Below are positions 1,461-52,363 of a stretch of 64,000 bases of DNA, one piece after another (the stretch's first letter is position 1; the number at the start of each line of letters is the position of its first letter). The notes under the pieces are model-generated. The model ran no database searches, was not told the origin of the DNA, and saw nothing but the letters and a program-made list of their open reading frames with translations. Origin of the DNA: Collinsella sp. (GTDB taxonomy: Bacteria > Actinomycetota > Coriobacteriia > Coriobacteriales > Coriobacteriaceae); the NCBI GenBank assembly GCA_036302525.1, contig JAXJCG010000008.1:106822-170821 (forward strand), written 5' to 3'. Made by a program: the position numbers and the translations under genes.

Positions 1461-1493
1461 GAGGGTTCGAATCCCCAGCCTCCTTTCTCCGCA

Positions 1494-1717: not shown

Positions 1718-4159
1718 CTACCCCAGCGAGCGGTTGAGGGAGCCGAGCTCGTCGTTGCCCATGGTGCGCCACATTTGGAAGATGCAACCGCGTGCCAGGA
1801 AAAAGAAGCCGTTGTCGACCAGTTGAACAGCGGCATCTGCCAGCTGATTCGTCACGGCGGACACTGGCGGCAGCTCGAGTCCAGCCTTGCGAATGGTCTC
1901 GACCGCTTCCTCGAACGTCGGAGGCTCGCTGACGCCCATCTCGTTCATAAGGCCCTGCATTTCTTCCAGCGCGCTGCTGCCCGACTCCTCGCCACGTGGC
2001 ACCAGACGGTAACAAGCCAGCGCAAGGTCGAGCTGATCGCAATTCCAATAGGCAAACGCCAGGCGATAGAACAGGTAGCCGATTGCAGAGCGATCGCTGG
2101 CAATACGTAGGCCGTGGCGCGCCACCTCGATAATCTCGTCAAAGCGCTCCAGACGCGCAAGAACGTTGATGAGCGCAAAGTGCGATTGCATGGACGAGCG
2201 CGCCAGATCGTAAAGATGGCGCACCTCGGGCAGCGCTCGTTCAAAGTCCTCTTGCTCGACGTAAAAGCTGCAGATCTCGTGCTGGGCAAAGTACAGCGCA
2301 TCGGGCGCACGAAGGATTCGCACAGAGCGGTCTTCTTCCAACACCGGTAGCACCATGCGCACCAGCTGGTTATCGCAAAACTGCGTTTGAACCGGACCTG
2401 TCGCCAAAAGCTCGGCAACGGCGCACTTAGCCTCCAACTCCTCAACAAGACGGGAAAAGCCTTCAAAAGCACCTGTACGGTCGACTTTTGCCTGCTCGCG
2501 CAATTCAACAACACGGGCCACGTATGGGTCGTCGTCCTCTTCCATGACCTCCAACTCGTCAGCCGTATCGGCAAGCAGCAAATCGCGCAGCGCCGGCGGA
2601 AGCGTGCGATGGTCATCACGCGGACGAGCATGAACCTCCGCAGGTTCAATCGTCTCCGGAGCAGTTGACTCATACGCCTCAAGTACACGCTTGCACGGCA
2701 TATCGTCCATGTCCATGCTCTCAAGATCCTTGGCGACAGGCACGCAATCGGCCAGATAGGCCGCGCGCCCAAAGAAATACGTTGCGACAACGCGCTCGCC
2801 CTGCTCACTGTCGGGAGCAGCAATCTGCACATAGCAGCGCGTGATGCAGGTGCCCGCGGCAAAACACGCTGCCGCAAGCGTGAGTGCCACGCGCGCATCG
2901 TGCTCCGCGGCCCAGATCGCGCGCGTGTCCTCGTCCAGCTCGCGCCAGGCGTCATCCTGAGCGTCGTATTCACGTTGCGGCATGGCATCAACGACAGACT
3001 GCCCAAACCGAACGAGCATAATCCCCTCGGCAACGTTTGCCCGATAGGTATAGTCGAGCCGCGTGACCACGTTGAGCGCCTCAACGATTCGCGCAAAACG
3101 GGTGCGCACGTCCCACTCGCCGCCCGGCTGGCAAGCCACCGTACCCGGCTTGCCCCACGGGTTATCGCTCGAAGCCGTATCGAGCAGTCGGGGAACATCG
3201 TTGGTCGTCTTGGCGATATGCCACGCATCAAAGAGCGCGCAGCCCTCAAGGCTCGGCGAGGATGCCGCAGGGACCAATCCGGCCCCGATGCGCTCAAGGA
3301 TGCCGGAGAGGCGGTTGAGACGGCACTCGATGGCAAGCAGCATGTCAATCTCGTCCTGGTCCAACAGGCTACGATCAAAATTGAGATAGAAAATCTTTGA
3401 GCGATCAATGCGAGCCAGGCTCATCTCGGACTTGGCAGCGATGGTGCGCAGGCGGGGCAAGTCAATTTCGCTCATAAGGGCGGCGGCATAGCGCTCGATA
3501 CCGCTCGGATTCTCGGCATGGTCAACGCGGTAGAGCAGCGTCTCGATAGCATCGGGGAGCGGTGCCGTGTTAAAGCCCAAAAACACCTCGACCGGCTCGG
3601 TCAACTTTACGAGCTTGATCTTGTCGACAACATTTTGCATGTCCGCATCGAGACCGTCGACGCCCGCCGTGTTCGCAATAGCGCTTTCGGAGTTGGCAAA
3701 TATCACGTAGCGCAGGAACATCGATGCCATGAACTCGCCGTAAGGAAGGGAGCGGGCCGAATTCCATGTCTCGTGATCGGACTGCTCGCGCATGGGGCCT
3801 TCGGGAGAGCCGACGGTTCGCGCGCACGCGCGCATTGCACCGCTGGCTTCCCTTACCATAATCTCACCAATACTGGAATCCGACTCGTCAAGAACCAGTT
3901 CCATGTCGGGATCGTTGGACAGCGATACTTCGTTAACGGGACGGTCCACCTTATAGACCTCACCCGAAACGCTCACGTAGCCCAAAAGCGACACATGGCT
4001 TTTGCCGACGAATTCGACGGCATAGCATGATTCATGCGGGTCCTCGCCAAAGAGTTTCCAGACCACGCCATATGAGCGTCCCGCAGGCTGCTCGGGCATC
4101 ACCGGAAAGCGCTTCTTGGGATCGAGAAACCTGAGCTTGTATGTCGGACGCTCTGCCAC
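1718..4159 (-). CDS. hypothetical 813-aa protein with C-terminal TPR-like helical repeats
   Basis: Longest ORF at this locus; the overlapping ORFs look like frame shadows. The last ~200 aa have TPR-like periodicity (ALYFAQHEI..FERALPEV..LARLERFDEIIEVARHGL..YRLAFAYWNCDQLDLALACYRLV). I recognise no catalytic motif. Confidence 0.65.
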   Translation of the reverse strand: MAERPTYKLRFLDPKKRFPVMPEQPAGRSYGVVWKLFGEDPHESCYAVEFVGKSHVSLLGYVSVSGEVYKVDRPVNEVSLSNDPDMELVLDESDSSIGEIMVREASGAMRACARTVGSPEGPMREQSDHETWNSARSLPYGEFMASMFLRYVIFANSESAIANTAGVDGLDADMQNVVDKIKLVKLTEPVEVFLGFNTAPLPDAIETLLYRVDHAENPSGIERYAAALMSEIDLPRLRTIAAKSEMSLARIDRSKIFYLNFDRSLLDQDEIDMLLAIECRLNRLSGILERIGAGLVPAASSPSLEGCALFDAWHIAKTTNDVPRLLDTASSDNPWGKPGTVACQPGGEWDVRTRFARIVEALNVVTRLDYTYRANVAEGIMLVRFGQSVVDAMPQREYDAQDDAWRELDEDTRAIWAAEHDARVALTLAAACFAAGTCITRCYVQIAAPDSEQGERVVATYFFGRAAYLADCVPVAKDLESMDMDDMPCKRVLEAYESTAPETIEPAEVHARPRDDHRTLPPALRDLLLADTADELEVMEEDDDPYVARVVELREQAKVDRTGAFEGFSRLVEELEAKCAVAELLATGPVQTQFCDNQLVRMVLPVLEEDRSVRILRAPDALYFAQHEICSFYVEQEDFERALPEVRHLYDLARSSMQSHFALINVLARLERFDEIIEVARHGLRIASDRSAIGYLFYRLAFAYWNCDQLDLALACYRLVPRGEESGSSALEEMQGLMNEMGVSEPPTFEEAVETIRKAGLELPPVSAVTNQLADAAVQLVDNGFFFLARGCIFQMWRTMGNDELGSLNRSLG

Positions 4160-4345
4160 GAAGTATCACCCTGATCGGTCGTTGAGAGAAGGAGTGATCG
4201 CGGATGGGCCGCGACACCTACTCGGAATCTTACACGAGTCGACAGGAAATAGTCCGCTTTACGCCCGCGCCTCGACCGAGGTTCGAATCCATGCAGTGTT
4301 TACGTAAAAGAAAAGCCCCCGTTGCCGGAGGCTTTCAATTTCGGT

Positions 4346-4365
4346 TGGTGCGGCGTATAGGATTC
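4346..4365 (-). pseudogene. orphan copy of the last 20 nt of tRNA-Arg (GAATCCTATACGCCGCACCA), module 1
   Basis: Exact 20-nt identity to the tRNA-Arg 3' end. Sequence diverges immediately 5' of the T loop. Confidence 0.85.
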
Positions 4366-4535
4366 CGCGCATCCGCTGCGCGGATCCGCACCGGCTTCGC
4401 CCGCCTGCCGGCGTGCTCGCCCGCTCGCTACGGACGCTCCGCGTCCGCTTCACGCTCGCGCCTCGACCGAGGTTCGAATCCATGCAGTGCTTACGTAAAA
4501 GAAAAGCCCCCGTTGCCGGGAGCTTTAATCTCAAA

Positions 4536-4612
4536 TGGTGCGGCGTATAGGATTCGAACCTATGACGTTCTGATTCGTAGTCAGACCCTCTATCCAGCTG
4601 AGGTAACGCCGC
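4536..4612 (-). tRNA. tRNA-Arg(ACG), copy 1
   Basis: 77 nt: GCGGCGT/ACGCCGC acceptor, D arm CCTC..GAGG, anticodon arm TCTGA-CTACGAA-TCAGA, T arm ATAGG-TTCGAAT-CCTAT, encoded CCA. Confidence 0.92.
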
Positions 4613-4624
4613 GACTTGTTGATT

Positions 4625-4653
4625 ATTATGCACATCGACTGAATAAAGGTCAA
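4625..4653 (-). promoter_or_regulatory. sigma70-like promoter of tRNA-Arg copy 1
   Basis: Minus strand reads TTGACC - 17 nt - CATAAT, ending ~12 nt upstream of the mature 5' end. Confidence 0.5.
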
Positions 4654-4800
4654 GCATTTTTCGAAAAAAGTTATCAAATTTGATTTTTACTCATTTGATG
4701 CAGTCGATCGACTCGATACTTTCAAACACGGCGAAAGCAACTCCTCAAGTATGTCGACGATATATGAAAAGCCCCCGTTTCCGGAGGCTTAAAACTCAAT

Positions 4801-4820
4801 TGGTGCGGCGTATAGGATTC
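4801..4820 (-). pseudogene. orphan copy of the last 20 nt of tRNA-Arg, module 2
   Basis: Exact 20-nt identity to the tRNA 3' end. Confidence 0.85.
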
Positions 4821-4990
4821 CGCGCATCCGCTGCGCGGATCCGCACCGGCTTCGCCCGCCTGCCGGCGGACTCGCCCGCTCGCTAAAAACGCTTCGCGTT
4901 TTTTTGACGCTCGCGCCTCGAACGAGGTTCGAATCTCCGCAATGCCCCCGTAAAGGAAAAGCCCCCGTTGCCGGAGGCTTAAAACTCAGT

Positions 4991-5067
4991 TGGTGCGGCG
5001 TATAGGATTCGAACCTATGACGTTCTGATTCGTAGTCAGACCCTCTATCCAGCTGAGGTAACGCCGC
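4991..5067 (-). tRNA. tRNA-Arg(ACG), copy 2
   Basis: Identical over 77/77 nt to copy 1. Confidence 0.92.
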
Positions 5068-5079
5068 AACGCACGGATT

Positions 5080-5108
5080 ATTATGCACGTGACCCCTCGA
5101 TGGGTCAA
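5080..5108 (-). promoter_or_regulatory. sigma70-like promoter of tRNA-Arg copy 2
   Basis: Minus strand reads TTGACC - 17 nt - CATAAT. Confidence 0.5.
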
Positions 5109-5230
5109 GCGACAATTTGGAAAAATTTTACGAAGTGATGATTAAGATGCTCACGCCTCGACCGAGGTTCGAATCCATGCGGTGTTGCCATAAAAGAAAA
5201 GCCCCCGTTGCCGGAGGCTTTAAGTTCGAT

Positions 5231-5250
5231 TGGTGCGGCGTATAGGATTC
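5231..5250 (-). pseudogene. orphan copy of the last 20 nt of tRNA-Arg, module 3
   Basis: Exact 20-nt identity to the tRNA 3' end. Confidence 0.85.
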
Positions 5251-5420
5251 CGCGCATCCGCTTCGCGGATCCGCACCGGCTTCGCCCGCCTGCCGGCGGA
5301 CTCGCCCGCGGGCTGAAAACGCTCCGCGTTTTTTTGACGCCCGCGCCTCGACCGAGGTTCGAATCCGTGCGGTGCCGGCGTAAAAGAAAAGCCCCCGTTG
5401 CCGGAGGCTTCAAGTTCGAT

Positions 5421-5497
5421 TGGTGCGGCGTATAGGATTCGAACCTATGACGTTCTGATTCGTAGTCAGACCCTCTATCCAGCTGAGGTAACGCCGC
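5421..5497 (-). tRNA. tRNA-Arg(ACG), copy 3
   Basis: Identical over 77/77 nt to copies 1 and 2. Confidence 0.92.
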
Positions 5498-5509
5498 AGC
5501 GCAAGACAT

Positions 5510-5538
5510 ATAAAACCACTTTAGCTTATTGGAGTCAA
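5510..5538 (-). promoter_or_regulatory. candidate promoter of tRNA-Arg copy 3
   Basis: Minus strand reads TTGACT - 17 nt - TTTTAT. The -10 is weaker than in copies 1 and 2. Confidence 0.35.
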
Positions 5539-5739
5539 GCACAATCTCAAACTTTTTTGTGGAACGCAGTTTTGTCATGCTGCTCCGCATATACCGCTGT
5601 TCCCCGTACGATCGATTGGCTTTTCGATCACGTCGAACTTGGCATCAAGTTCCCTCAGGAGCGATCTCACCCGCTGGGCACAATCATAATCGGCAAACGA
5701 GATGCTCAGCATGCGCGCGACCTGGTTGGAAGTCCCAAC

Positions 5740-5952
5740 TCAATAGAAGTGCTCCAGCGCCACAAGTCCCTCGTGTGTCACAAAGGTCTCGACCACATGC
5801 GGCGACTCCTCAAAGCACCATTGTGTCAACGGACCCTCACTCGTCTGCCGAACCACCAGGCCGCCCATGCCAGACGGCTCACACGTTACAAGCAGGTACT
5901 CCCCGCCCTCGTCGCTCTCAAACAAAACCACCCGATCATCAAACAGCTCCAT
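5740..5952 (-). CDS. hypothetical small acidic protein (70 aa)
   Basis: ORF preceded by AAAGGGGG Shine-Dalgarno. No recognisable motif. Confidence 0.45.
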   Translation of the reverse strand: MELFDDRVVLFESDEGGEYLLVTCEPSGMGGLVVRQTSEGPLTQWCFEESPHVVETFVTHEGLVALEHFY

Positions 5953-10189: not shown

Positions 10190-10408
10190 GTGGTCAAAAA
10201 AGGCCAAATATGAGTACTGTTACCAGTTTAGTAACAGCGTATTTGGGTCAAAATCGCCTCGTTGAACCCGAGGTCTATCGAAATTACTTCATTTTGTCTC
10301 AAGGTTGAGCCAAATTAGCGTACATCTGTTGCGTAAAATGAGCAAAAATGGCTTCATGAAATGTCTCTATTTTCATGTCAGTACTCATATTTGCCACTTT
10401 TTGACCAC
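10190..10408. repeat. MITE-like element: ~30-bp imperfect terminal inverted repeats around an AT-rich core
   Basis: GTGGTCAAAAAAGGCCAAATATGAGTACTG (10190-10219) matches the reverse complement of 10379-10408 at 27/30 positions. The interior is visibly AT-rich. Confidence 0.55.
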
Positions 10409-10462
10409 AGGGGCATCTACCGCGCGAAATCGATATGTCAAATCTGCCAAAAACGGCCCATA

Positions 10463-10490
10463 ACAAAAAAGCTCCCATTGCTGGGAGCTC
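10463..10490 (-). terminator. terminator of tRNA-Leu
   Basis: Minus strand reads AGCTCCCA-GCAA-TGGGAGCT followed by TTTTTTG. Confidence 0.7.
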
Positions 10491-10500
10491 TTTCATTCAA

Positions 10501-10587
10501 TGGTGCGGGCGAAAGGACTTGAACCTTCATGGGGTTGCCCCCATACGGACCTGAACCGTACGCGTCTGCCAATTCCGCCACGCCCGC
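10501..10587 (-). tRNA. tRNA-Leu(CAG)
   Basis: 87 nt: acceptor GCGGGCG/CGCCCGC, anticodon arm TACGG-TTCAGGT-CCGTA, long variable arm, T arm GAAGG-TTCAAGT-CCTTT, encoded CCA. Confidence 0.9.
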
Positions 10588-48056: not shown

Positions 48057-48131
48057 GGGCGTTTAGCTCAGGGGGAGAGCGCTTCCCTGACACGGAAGAG
48101 GTCAGAAGTTCAAATCTTCTAACGCCCACCA
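48057..48131 (+). tRNA. tRNA-Val(GAC)
   Basis: 75 nt: acceptor GGGCGTT/AACGCCC, anticodon arm CTTCC-CTGACAC-GGAAG, T arm CAGAAG-TTCAAAT-CTTCTA region, encoded CCA. Confidence 0.9.
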
Positions 48132-50260: not shown

Positions 50261-52363
50261 CTAAACCTCTGGAAATGCCTCAAGATAAGAACGGCCGCTT
50301 GGCTTAAATTCAAACTTGTCTTCTCTATACAGTTCGTTTCTTTCAAGACACTCTTTCTTAATTTCGATAAGATTCTCGCGCCTTCCCAGATACATCTTTG
50401 GTCTGCTCTGGCCCAGAATTAGCCTCTTGTTGTCCTTCAGGAAACCCCGAAGCCCCTGATTAACCAGCTCATATAGCGGAACGAGCAAGCGGTTGGGCCC
50501 TTCAGTAATGTCAGAGTCTTCGATGACAGATTTATCCATGCCCTTCTTCAGCCAAAATGAAACATCATTGAGGTCTAGAAGGCGTTTGCATGTATCAGAA
50601 TCGAGGGTTCCATATTTATTGCAAAGCAAAAATGATCCAATTTCAGCAACCGACAATGCCATCTGTGCCTTCCAAACACCAAACAAAAAGTCATTATCTT
50701 CATTTAGTGCGATGAGTTTCTCCTGTTGAGTCGCCCTCGGGCTGACAACACCAGTATCCTCAAGCCTTGCCAGAGCCTCGTTTTTCAGCTTCGTCGTCCC
50801 AACAGGCTTGACGCGGTATTCAAGATAGCGCCCGACCGCCATTGCCAATAGCAATTGATATTGAGTGGGCTGTCCGTCCTCAAGTAAATCGGCTTTATAG
50901 CTAAAGTTGGGCTTTTTCATTTGCTCCCAGAGGGCAGGAGAAGGCCTCTTCGCAAACACGGAGGAATACTCCGGGTCTCGAAAGTACTTAACTCCGCCAG
51001 CATTGGCTTTAGGAGCGTTTCCGATCCATGCCCACCAGATTTTTGCCAGGTCTTCGTTATCGATATGCCTGTAACGATTCTTGCCCCTTCTCGTCGATCC
51101 CTTAATCTCGAAGTAACTTTTCTTTGGCTCACGCTTGTTCGACTGAAGGAAGGAATCGAGTTCTCCGTCCTTCCTGATATAGAAATAACGCATCTCTTTT
51201 TTAAGTGGGTCTTTATAGAAAGAAGACTGCAGCTTTCGCTGCTCGGCAGAATTGGACTTTAGATTGCGATCATTCATTGGGTTCTGGTGATTCGATGCGA
51301 CGATGATGTCGTCGAGCAGCTCATCTTGATTTGCCGTACTGCTATTTAAGACCTTAGCAATGATCTTCACATCGGAACAGATGCTCTCTTTCACGCTATC
51401 GTTAGATGCCATGTAAAAGTCAAAAATAGTGCTCAGGGTCTGGCAGCCGTTCACTACTTGGGCATCAGCCACCTTAATCGAAGGCTTCCTGTCCCCTTGA
51501 CTTGGCTTCACATAGTTGTTGCAGGTAATCACGATTCCATTGTTAAGATGGACGAAACGCTTTCTACCCTTTTCAGTCGACAGCTGCTTCTTGATTGCCG
51601 CATTCACGTTCGACCCCTTCAACGTTGATCGAACATTCATGTCAAACAAGTCATATCCGTATTTTGCAATAGCGTCAATTAACGGTTTGACATCCAAGAC
51701 AGCGCAGAACCAGCCGTTTTGCCATATAACGCAATCATTAATATCACGCGTAGTCAGCTTTAACTCGATATGGGTTCGGTTGGCAACCTCATCATTTCTG
51801 TGCCAACAATCGTAAATATCATTCTCCTCGTAAAGACAGATATTTATTCCCTCATTGGCTTTTTGAGAACGTACCTCCTCAAAACGCCTTCTTGCAGAGT
51901 CGCTGAGTCTACCCTCAAGCGCAAGCACGGCAGTTAAGATGCAATTAGCCTTTTTGAATTGATATCCCTGCTTCAGTTTTCTCACACCGGCGTTCGAACC
52001 AGCATCATTATCCGAAGTAATAAACTCAACAGCTTCTTGCAACTCATTAACAGGTGTTGCGTCAAACACTTTTCCCTCTGGATAATTATCCAGATTGCAC
52101 GATTTGCATTGATAGAACGTGTAGCCATCATCGCGCGCAATGTAAAAATCAACACCGTGGTCATTGGCCCCATCGGTATAGATAAAGCTATTCTCATCGG
52201 AAAGAATATCTTCGCCTTCAAAAACGGCCGCAACGGTATAGGCGAAGGCGACATCATCCCCTTCGCCATCATCCAAATAGTTTTCACGAATATCGTCCAT
52301 CTTTGATGTGATATCCGCATTAAACTCTGATCTGTCGAACGTGATGCCCATACGCCACTCCAT
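50261..52363 (-). CDS. AIPR (abortive infection phage resistance) family protein
   Basis: 700 aa. The N-terminal nuclease-like module has GANDHGVDFYI...YQCK (D...QxK). The central VNGCQT motif and overall layout are typical of AIPR proteins. The gene is visibly AT-richer (hand counts 43-48% G+C on two 60-nt lines). An alternative start at 52351 has a GGAG SD. Confidence 0.8.
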   Translation of the reverse strand: MEWRMGITFDRSEFNADITSKMDDIRENYLDDGEGDDVAFAYTVAAVFEGEDILSDENSFIYTDGANDHGVDFYIARDDGYTFYQCKSCNLDNYPEGKVFDATPVNELQEAVEFITSDNDAGSNAGVRKLKQGYQFKKANCILTAVLALEGRLSDSARRRFEEVRSQKANEGINICLYEENDIYDCWHRNDEVANRTHIELKLTTRDINDCVIWQNGWFCAVLDVKPLIDAIAKYGYDLFDMNVRSTLKGSNVNAAIKKQLSTEKGRKRFVHLNNGIVITCNNYVKPSQGDRKPSIKVADAQVVNGCQTLSTIFDFYMASNDSVKESICSDVKIIAKVLNSSTANQDELLDDIIVASNHQNPMNDRNLKSNSAEQRKLQSSFYKDPLKKEMRYFYIRKDGELDSFLQSNKREPKKSYFEIKGSTRRGKNRYRHIDNEDLAKIWWAWIGNAPKANAGGVKYFRDPEYSSVFAKRPSPALWEQMKKPNFSYKADLLEDGQPTQYQLLLAMAVGRYLEYRVKPVGTTKLKNEALARLEDTGVVSPRATQQEKLIALNEDNDFLFGVWKAQMALSVAEIGSFLLCNKYGTLDSDTCKRLLDLNDVSFWLKKGMDKSVIEDSDITEGPNRLLVPLYELVNQGLRGFLKDNKRLILGQSRPKMYLGRRENLIEIKKECLERNELYREDKFEFKPSGRSYLEAFPEV

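Follow-up and report, generated by a model that had tools for sequence, protein, structure and literature searches.

The stretch considered here, the window, is 64 kb of DNA from a Collinsella of the aerofaciens group, and all coordinates refer to it unless a related locus is named. It contains an array of three tRNA-Arg(ACG) genes, each trailed by a non-coding module of about 150 nt that ends in a copy of the tRNA 3′ end. These modules probably are tRNA-trailer elements of the kind known as RtT from the E. coli tyrT locus. The array has the genes for seryl-tRNA synthetase (serS) and a D-Ala-D-Ala carboxypeptidase as neighbors, and the assignment to the aerofaciens group comes from these genes and from 80 related loci. 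All three tRNA genes lie on the minus strand and the parts are read in the tRNA sense. ARAGORN and Rfam both find the three tRNA genes, and direct comparison shows their 77-nt sequences to be identical, as the original prediction had stated. Behind each tRNA come a terminator (B), a box that holds the T arm in inverted form (A), a segment of about 107 nt made of hairpins (E), a repeat of the tRNA 3′ end (C) and then B again. This order, likewise predicted, is borne out by exact-match searches and a terminator scan. C repeats exactly the last 20 nt of the tRNA, GAATCCTATACGCCGCACCA, and the core of A, GATTCGAACCTCGKTCGAGGCG, is found five times. The B hairpin occurs six times; the terminator scan accepts five of these, where shuffled sequences give 2.1 on average, and the sixth has a poor T run. 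In two of the three cassettes the second B leads into the start of a further unit, comprising A, hairpin P2 and the first bases of hairpin P3. The A box is missing only after the second B of the middle cassette, in line with the prediction that it "usually" follows. A promoter had been claimed for each tRNA copy. Two sites, TTGACC-17-CATAAT, pass the promoter scan, while the third (TTGACT at 5533–5538, 17 nt, TTTTAT at 5510–5515) is visible in the sequence and fails the scan rule for the second hexamer, of which position 2 is T. A repeat finder reports a 300-nt repeat in three copies and an 84-nt repeat in five. The features are listed below in the order of transcription; R1 is a covariance model of the module, built from the alignment A1 described further on.

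5510–5538, minus strand: promoter-like site of tRNA copy 1 (TTGACT, 17 nt, TTTTAT), read from the sequence
5421–5497, minus strand: tRNA-Arg(ACG), first copy transcribed (ARAGORN; Rfam tRNA, 66 bits; identical to the other two)
5388–5411, minus strand: B, intrinsic terminator of tRNA copy 1 (terminator scan: 10 pairs and a T run)
5231–5381, minus strand: module 1 (A-E-C), with A core 5344–5365, hairpins P2–P5 and C 5231–5250 (R1, 143.1 bits; fold −75.2 kcal/mol, z −2.5; exact matches)
5198–5221, minus strand: B, second terminator, after module 1 (terminator scan)
5154–5175, minus strand: solo A box with P2, then promoter spacer, a truncated next unit (exact match; the junction is the same in the module-less locus L036)
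5080–5108, minus strand: promoter-like site of tRNA copy 2 (TTGACC, 17 nt, CATAAT; scan)
4991–5067, minus strand: tRNA-Arg(ACG), second copy (ARAGORN, Rfam, identity)
4959–4980, minus strand: B, terminator of tRNA copy 2 (terminator scan)
4801–4951, minus strand: module 2 (A-E-C), with A core 4914–4935 and C 4801–4820 (R1, 150.1 bits; exact matches)
4766–4788, minus strand: B variant GCCTCCGGAAACGGGGGC, short T run, no A box after it (exact match and reading of the sequence)
4625–4653, minus strand: promoter-like site of tRNA copy 3 (scan)
4536–4612, minus strand: tRNA-Arg(ACG), third copy (ARAGORN, Rfam, identity)
4503–4526, minus strand: B, terminator of tRNA copy 3 (terminator scan)
4346–4496, minus strand: module 3 (A-E-C), with A core 4459–4480, C 4346–4365 and P3 as the variant GCGGACGC/GCGTCCG (R1, 149 bits; exact matches, fold)
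4311–4336, minus strand: B, last terminator (terminator scan)
4252–4305, minus strand: terminal truncated unit, with A box 4268–4289, P2 and the first P3 bases, then unique DNA (repeat family D2; weak R1 match at 4177–4305, 19.6 bits; same end in L036, L066 and L081)

The A-E-C unit folds as a whole. Minimum-energy folds of six copies, including the diverged ones of L083 (Collinsella ihumii) and L088, share one architecture with z-scores of −1.9 to −5.1. In L083 and L088, which belong to other Coriobacteriaceae, E can hardly be aligned with the remaining copies, yet the fold is the same. In these predicted folds A pairs with the T-loop and 3′ T-stem part of C to give a stem, P1. At the junction that P1 closes there are four hairpins: P2, which has a GNRA loop, P3, which has a conserved asymmetric internal loop, P4 and P5. 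A free 3′ tail consists of the acceptor strand and CCA. In 98 distinct aerofaciens-group copies the consensus pairs consist of 3247 Watson-Crick, 253 G-U and 10 A-C cells, and the excess of G-U over A-C marks the sense strand, not its complement, as the folding strand. An RNA from the opposite strand, or a convergent pseudo-tRNA, was rejected: the antisense consensus fold reaches −10.5 against −22.9 kcal/mol, A-C would replace the 253 G-U cells, and no tRNA is found on that strand.

Covariation was scored on alignment A1, a MAFFT alignment, not fitted to structure, of 51 copies from 11 host genes. RNAalifold on A1 missed P1, P2 and P4, since MAFFT shifts the C region between hosts; therefore the 34 pairs of P2–P5 were scored with the stated structure and P1 was examined host by host. 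For P2–P5, 97.7% of the cells are paired, compared with 87.7% in shuffles (none of 500 reaches the observed value), and moving the partners by 1–3 columns lowers the paired fraction to 29–42%. Eighteen of the 34 pairs have changed on both sides. The sense-strand hairpins are thus strongly backed by covariation. P1 is present in every host class and always has a host-specific sequence: GCUGGGGAU with AUCCCCAGC in the tRNA-Ser modules, CGCGGAGAAUC with GAUUCUCCGCG in those of transfer-messenger RNA (tmRNA), UGAAGGGACUUG with CAAGUCCCUUCA in the Leu(CAA) module, and 6 bp only, GGAUUC with GAAUCC, in the Arg modules. The box A had been noted as T-loop-like in the opposite sense. It is indeed inverted, and beyond that its sequence is the complement of the T arm of its own host, with C as its pairing partner. 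The E hairpin had also been said to pair with C through GGTGCGG/CCGCACC; this holds in the Arg modules and is lost as a general feature in other hosts, where the bases belong to P5, with GCG in its outer stem, and do not track the host 3′ end.

The unit is also found behind other genes. Among 80 related loci (labelled L001 and so on), a module follows tRNA-Leu(CAG) in related Collinsella in the order tRNA, terminator, A′ (GGGACTTGAACC, the inverted Leu T arm), E, GTCCTTTCGCCCGCACCA and terminator. The site is occupied in L001, L011 and L015 and holds two tandem modules in L017, and a Leu-type A box is present downstream of 44 of 60 related tRNA-Leu(CAG) genes. A Ser version is found behind tRNA-Ser(GCU) in 7 loci, with full modules at the site equivalent to that of the window in L025, L039, L041, L043 and L047. 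The window itself carries the following at these two sites.

10456–10587, minus strand: tRNA-Leu(CAG) (10501–10587) and its terminator without a module, an unoccupied site (comparison with occupied loci)
1463–1479, minus strand: solo A box GCTGGGGATTCGAACCC, the inverted tRNA-Ser T arm, behind tRNA-Ser(GCU) at 1535–1625 (sequence comparison)

The solo Ser box has the tRNA-Ser terminator on one side and, on the other, that of the convergent carboxypeptidase gene. A metagenome scan with the P3 pattern gave at least 120 loci. Counted as modules with matching A and C among the matches listed, the hosts are as follows.

tmRNA: at least 31 modules
tRNA-Gly(CCC): at least 24
tRNA-Arg(ACG): at least 19
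tRNA-Leu(CAG): at least 15
tRNA-Ser(GCU): at least 10
tRNA-Gly(GCC): at least 8
tRNA-Leu(CAA), Leu(UAA), Leu(UAG), His and Glu: at least 1 each

Taken over the related loci and the gut metagenomes, at least 11 genes host the A-E-C unit. Rfam confirms the identity of the tmRNA host. The Leu(UAG) module lies in DNA of Mobiluncus, a member of a second class of Actinomycetota, and the His and Leu(CAA) modules lie in DNA of 46% G+C. About 6 of 125 metagenomic modules, among the matches listed, have an A and a C that fit different hosts; mismatched modules were noted in L093, L104, L155, L159, L177 and L188, and also in L060. They probably are assembly mis-joins through the shared E, the alternative being real recombination between loci. 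Outside these apparent chimeras A and C match the adjacent gene and E is common to the hosts. E cores of different hosts within the aerofaciens group are 74–91% identical, while Ser modules of different genera are 58–71% identical; since E is more alike across hosts in one lineage than at one host across genera, spread or homogenization within lineages is indicated. R1 finds the three modules in the window (143–150 bits), with nothing more than weak partial matches besides, and detects the copies in L083 and L088, both outside its training set. It gives no match in the syntenic loci of Atopobiaceae, Olsenella, Slackia and C. intestinalis. The Rfam search that had been suggested as a check was run over the modules at gathering and permissive thresholds and returned tRNA and tmRNA only, and our literature search turned up no account of such an element from Collinsella or downstream of a tmRNA gene.

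What is copied from the host varies. A is complementary to host positions 51–62 or more, and C is identical to positions 59–76. The copy starts in the T loop at position 59 for Gly, Ser and Leu(CAG), at 57 for Arg, and at 56 for His, Leu(CAA), L083 and L088. It ends at CCA at Gly(CCC) (20 of 20), Gly(GCC) and His, where the sequence beyond differs from that beyond the gene; at Arg, Leu(CAG), Ser, Leu(CAA) and Leu(UAA) it extends further and takes in a duplicate of the terminator. In the tmRNA modules C is a 12-nt internal piece, GATTCTCCGCGC, without the 3′ end; the tmRNA and its terminator are intact upstream, and in about 30 copies, among the matches listed, the 12 nt are followed by unrelated sequence. 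At tRNA-Gly(CCC) there are serial shorter units that share the P5-C end only, and the most distal C is the most degenerate. E and even the flank CCCATCGCA remain constant while A and C change with the host. From one host gene to another, the terminator that precedes the module shows no relationship, whereas E is conserved, and the constant entity is therefore A-E-C placed behind a host terminator. A and C might come to fit a new host in several ways: a rare transfer followed by selection for P1, a switch of template within the conserved sequence of the T loop, or guide-like homing.

Several simple origins were considered and rejected. A retroviral-type origin of an 18-nt copy, with reverse transcriptase stopping at 1-methyladenosine 58, conflicts with the start at position 56 in His, Leu(CAA), L083 and L088, with copies that often enter the trailer, and with the tmRNA copy that has no 3′ end. 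Target-site duplication by a staggered cut fits Leu(CAG), with 64 nt, and not the sites with differing flanks. A miniature inverted-repeat or insertion sequence (IS)-derived element is opposed by the lack of copies outside the tRNA flank in the 64 kb and by a duplicated target of 12–64 nt that is host-specific. A tRNA pseudogene is equally unsuitable, as ARAGORN and the Rfam tRNA model find the three genes only and E is common to modules of unrelated tRNAs. An empty tRNA-Gly(CCC) allele in C. intestinalis was discarded as evidence for a native terminator because its flanks are too diverged.

The closest relative appears to be the RtT RNA of E. coli. A 178-bp repeat of the tyrT locus was reportedly described by Egan and Landy in 1978, and the rtT RNA, it is said, by Bosl and Kersten in 1991. 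PMC3318445 and a preprint (bioRxiv 10.1101/2024.07.17.603846) present rttR as a processed product of the tyrT repeat, and the former, citing Bosl and Kersten, gives RtT as a structured, CCA-ended RNA from the tRNA transcript. The preprint ties rtT RNA to processing of the tyrT transcript and possibly to the stringent response. The E. coli tyrT-tyrV locus has an annotated small RNA, rttR, and four RtT copies by Rfam (RF00391, 133–137 bits), one between tyrT and tyrV and three after tyrV. Each ends in AATCCTTCCCCCACCACCA, the last 19 nt of tRNA-Tyr. The RtT consensus has a closing stem (Rfam structure and fold) of GGGGAAGGAU with AUCCUUCCCC of the tRNA-Tyr 3′ copy, and the tail CCACCACCA is free. 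RtT is present in 4738 of 5426 E. coli genomes, with 1–10 copies per genome and a median of 3.

The modules and RtT agree in many respects. Both lie directly behind a tRNA gene, on the same strand and in a tRNA cluster, with a gap of about 55 nt between the end of the tRNA and the A strand. The last part of each repeats the tRNA from its T loop through CCA (19 nt in E. coli, 20 nt in the Arg modules); by pairing with this repeat, a complementary 5′ strand closes a fold of several hairpins, from which the acceptor strand and CCA protrude as a tail. Both occur in tandem, with a period of 178 nt in E. coli and about 190 nt in Collinsella, between and after duplicated tRNA genes and in numbers that vary between strains. 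Collinear motifs are shared, namely UUCGA, GAGCGU, a GCAG-loop hairpin, GGGCGAAGC, a GCA-loop hairpin and AAUCC, and the RtT junction GGAU-GAGAAGC recurs in the Glu module. R1, built from actinobacterial and metagenomic modules only, places RtT copies at ranks 1, 2, 3 and 5 in 50 kb of E. coli DNA, on the correct strand and ending at CCA, although the scores are weak (17.6, 12.7, 12.0 and 8.7 bits, E from 5e-4 to 0.3); one unrelated match scores 9.4 bits and the tRNA-Tyr genes stay below 5 bits. There are also differences. The host of RtT is tRNA-Tyr in a gammaproteobacterium; E. coli has no intrinsic terminator between tRNA and RtT, whereas Collinsella has one; RtT lacks the long P3 hairpin and overlaps the small tpr open reading frame (ORF); and RtT is known from one tRNA, while the Collinsella-type family covers at least 11 tRNA and tmRNA hosts. 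The element had been called undescribed. Its architecture has in fact been known for decades from E. coli tyrT, and this branch of it is in no Rfam family. What is new here is the Collinsella branch and the many tRNA and tmRNA hosts; the RtT architecture at the single E. coli locus is what was already known.

We therefore regard each module as an RtT-like tRNA-trailer element, a non-coding A-E-C unit behind the terminator of a tRNA or tmRNA gene and in the orientation of that gene, and put the probability of this at roughly 0.6. By analogy with what is reported for E. coli RtT, the unit would be transcribed together with the tRNA by read-through of terminator B, trimmed by the enzymes of tRNA 3′-end maturation to a CCA-ended structured RNA, and bounded by the second B, which would stop transcription. 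This corresponds to one of two suggestions made beforehand, a structured CCA-ended RNA from the tRNA transcript. It gains from the covariation behind the sense-strand fold and from the relative RtT, which PMC3318445 describes as such an RNA. At the level of DNA, unequal recombination would be driven by the tRNAs, which are identical, and by direct repeats of about 105 nt (C-B-A); it would expand and contract both the modules and the tRNA-Arg genes, and the triplicated cassette, judged from its repeat structure, may have arisen in this way.

The variation among relatives agrees with such recombination. In 31 loci where the Arg array is contiguous from the leader to the downstream anchor, there are 1–4 tRNA genes and 0–3 modules, and the Leu sites hold 0, 1 or 2 modules. 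Cassettes with and without a module, the comparison proposed earlier, were thus both found at the Arg arrays and at the Leu and Ser sites. L036, with three tRNA genes, and L081, with four, have no full module and have kept the truncated A-P2 ends; in some arrays a truncated E is joined to the next promoter, and in the Arg array of L041 even A is missing. These states are those expected from unequal recombination among C-B-A repeats and identical tRNAs.

A number of points weigh against an RtT-like RNA. The scan found no promoter-like site inside the module, and a good intrinsic terminator separates each tRNA-Arg from its module, so that the output of RNA could be small. The Rfam RtT model gives no match at its gathering threshold (45 bits) in the window, nor at E up to 10 on 4100–5700; because it fails to score the window modules, we call them RtT-like and not members of RF00391. 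The link to RtT is drawn from shared architecture and weak reciprocal scores. Many of the compared loci are short-read metagenome assemblies, in which repeats collapse, most of the Arg-array loci also come from short reads, and with about 6 of 125 modules looking chimeric, some copy-number variants may be assembly artefacts. The P3-block difference among the Arg copies may be one recombination event rather than independent compensatory changes. Finally, covariation of the hairpins would be expected from folded single-stranded DNA as well.

This last point leads to other readings, in which the unit is mobile or neutral DNA. It may be the site of recombination in single-stranded form, in the manner of integron attC or CTX phage attP(+), where inverted partners fold to imitate a duplex target, structure is kept while sequence varies, and arrays grow by a fixed site. 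The A:C stem would then imitate the host T-arm duplex and units would accumulate by the gene like cassettes. The stem does have the sequence of the duplex tRNA gene, positions 59 to about 72, in every host class; only one strand folds, the sense strand, which the negative GC skew of the window plus strand would suggest to be the lagging-strand template; and tandem copies are common, with the serial arrays at Gly(CCC) newest at the proximal end. Nevertheless we consider this quite improbable. No recombinase is linked to the modules, such as the integrase partner of attC and attP(+), the GNRA loops and the asymmetric internal loop conserved in P3 are features characteristic of RNA, PMC3318445 describes the E. 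coli relative as an RNA, and insertion is behind the terminator, about 55 nt from the imitated site. Tyrosine integrases offer another route to a duplicated 3′ end. A miniature non-autonomous element, an attP-only circle (C-B-A-E), could be inserted by an integrase encoded elsewhere into a core from the T loop to the 3′ end, each insertion bringing a new 3′ end and terminator and pushing the old 3′ end downstream. The hosts suit this well, as tRNA and tmRNA genes are, reportedly according to Williams in 2002, classic integrase targets, and real integrase elements do use tRNA-Gly(CCC). At Gly(CCC), Gly(GCC) and His the direct repeat runs from the T loop exactly to CCA with differing flanks after each copy, and the serial Gly(CCC) units, which share the P5-C end and have the most degenerate C distally, look like serial integration, as do the presence or absence of modules and their tandem copies. 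The att-site scars known from integration, including those of cis-mobilizable elements, resemble the modules in the same way: the 3′ end of a tRNA is duplicated from a loop onward, the hosts are tRNA and tmRNA genes, copies accrue in tandem, and the inserts are free of genes. A distal repeat that is the displaced 3′ end with its native flank is compatible with Gly(CCC) and fails at tmRNA, where the internal 12-nt piece, followed by unrelated sequence and with gene and terminator intact upstream, cannot be a displaced 3′ end. The genuine integrase junctions at tRNA-Gly(CCC), those of L218 and L219, are identities of 45–60 nt from the anticodon region with arms unlike E, and the E core is absent from 2.9 million viral contigs, which also disposes of a phage origin. 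The terminators, unrelated between hosts while E is 74–91% identical, look host-derived rather than element-borne, no integrase lies next to the modules examined (the window ORFs scanned, and behind tmRNA), and the A:C pairing, the covarying folded core and the G-U bias are left unexplained. On the tmRNA layout, the different junctions, the missing integrase and the absence from viral contigs, we rank integration low and hold it to be unlikely overall, though conceivable at some sites. The tyrosine-integrase att-site idea of the original prediction consequently fits poorly, although its remark that no integrase is near holds for the subset of window ORFs that were scanned.

Simple local duplication of the tRNA 3′ flank, by slipped strands or unequal crossover and with neither function nor mobility, would account for the tandem layout with its fixed period, for the copy-number variation in Collinsella strains and E. 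coli, and for the degenerate copies of C. However, one and the same E core recurs after 11 or more host genes with no relation to each other, and the Actinomycetota that carry it belong to two classes; covariation is seen in 18 of 34 hairpin pairs, each host has an A and a C fitted anew to it, and no local duplication could bring E to a new locus. As an origin it is already contradicted, and as a full account highly improbable; it survives only as the mechanism of copy-number change. The re-matching invites a bolder idea, which we hold to be decidedly doubtful: RtT and the modules may be one ancient self-propagating non-coding family, in which a scaffold of RNA or single-stranded DNA with a re-programmable A (which would read the T-arm sense strand) and C (equal to positions 59–76) directs insertion just behind the terminator of the recognized tRNA or tmRNA gene, by guide-directed homing without an adjacent protein gene, the protein being encoded elsewhere or not needed. 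Structured scaffolds with short target-matching segments are known in the omega RNA or reRNA of IS200/IS605, the bridge RNA of IS110 and the homing CRISPR RNA of type V-K systems. Type V-K CRISPR transposons insert tens of bases downstream of a match in a tRNA gene. In contrast to these, the modules have no transposase or Cas gene near them and the corresponding Rfam families give no match. Taken together, the observation first made on this locus is confirmed and its interpretation in part supported. The miniature tRNA-targeting element amplified with the tRNA, its other suggestion, stands in a weaker sense, given E behind at least 11 hosts with matched ends, presence and absence between strains, and similarity by lineage.

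If the link between the modules and RtT is true, it changes the view of an RNA that for more than 40 years has been a curiosity of one locus, the E. coli tyrT operon, and whose function has never been settled. RtT would belong to a broad family that is found in Proteobacteria and in two or more classes of Actinomycetota, follows tmRNA as well as many tRNA genes and has each copy tailored to its neighbor, and the conserved five-way junction, the host-matched stem and the tRNA-identical tail would give comparative leverage on function. The finding also draws attention to a structured element, so far not annotated, in a genus common in the human gut. The family explains the variation of tRNA-Arg gene number between Collinsella strains and the breaks and mis-joins of short-read assemblies at these loci, and it raises the puzzle of how a non-coding unit gains sequences matched to each new host gene.

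Other features were observed in the window and the compared loci. Downstream of the window tRNA-Leu, an AT-rich segment of about 260 nt (about 10195–10455) is also present in L015 and missing in L001 and L017, a second insertion/deletion polymorphism. Between serS and the Arg array lies a small ORF of 125 amino acids (5575–5952, minus strand) with no Pfam match, intact in L001 and interrupted by an in-frame stop in the window. Directly downstream of the array is an ORF of 813 amino acids (1718–4159, minus strand), called as 793 amino acids in L001, with no Pfam domain. Behind the tmRNA modules of L108, 2.7 copies of a 62-nt hairpin repeat (GGGAYGC..TTTCC..GGAAA..GCRTCCCGGAATC) occupy 5240–5404, and similar repeats occur in L103 and L120. 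The integrase-bearing elements in tRNA-Gly(CCC) lie upstream of purB in L218 (813–2190) and L219 (307–2060); their identity blocks of 45–60 nt begin close to the anticodon loop. The element of L219 brings along a tRNA-Gly(CCC)-like gene of its own. An IS200/IS605-type element with a Y1 transposase (L214, 3925–4675) is placed exactly after the T run of the purB terminator, at a site that is empty in L210. It was rejected as a partner of the modules since, although it inserts right after a terminator, its ends are unlike E. A protein with an AIPR (abortive infection) domain is encoded in the window at 50261–52363 (minus strand), in an islet of low G+C (0.48–0.54) with no integrase among the neighboring ORFs scanned, a few kb from tRNA-Val(GAC) at 48057–48131.

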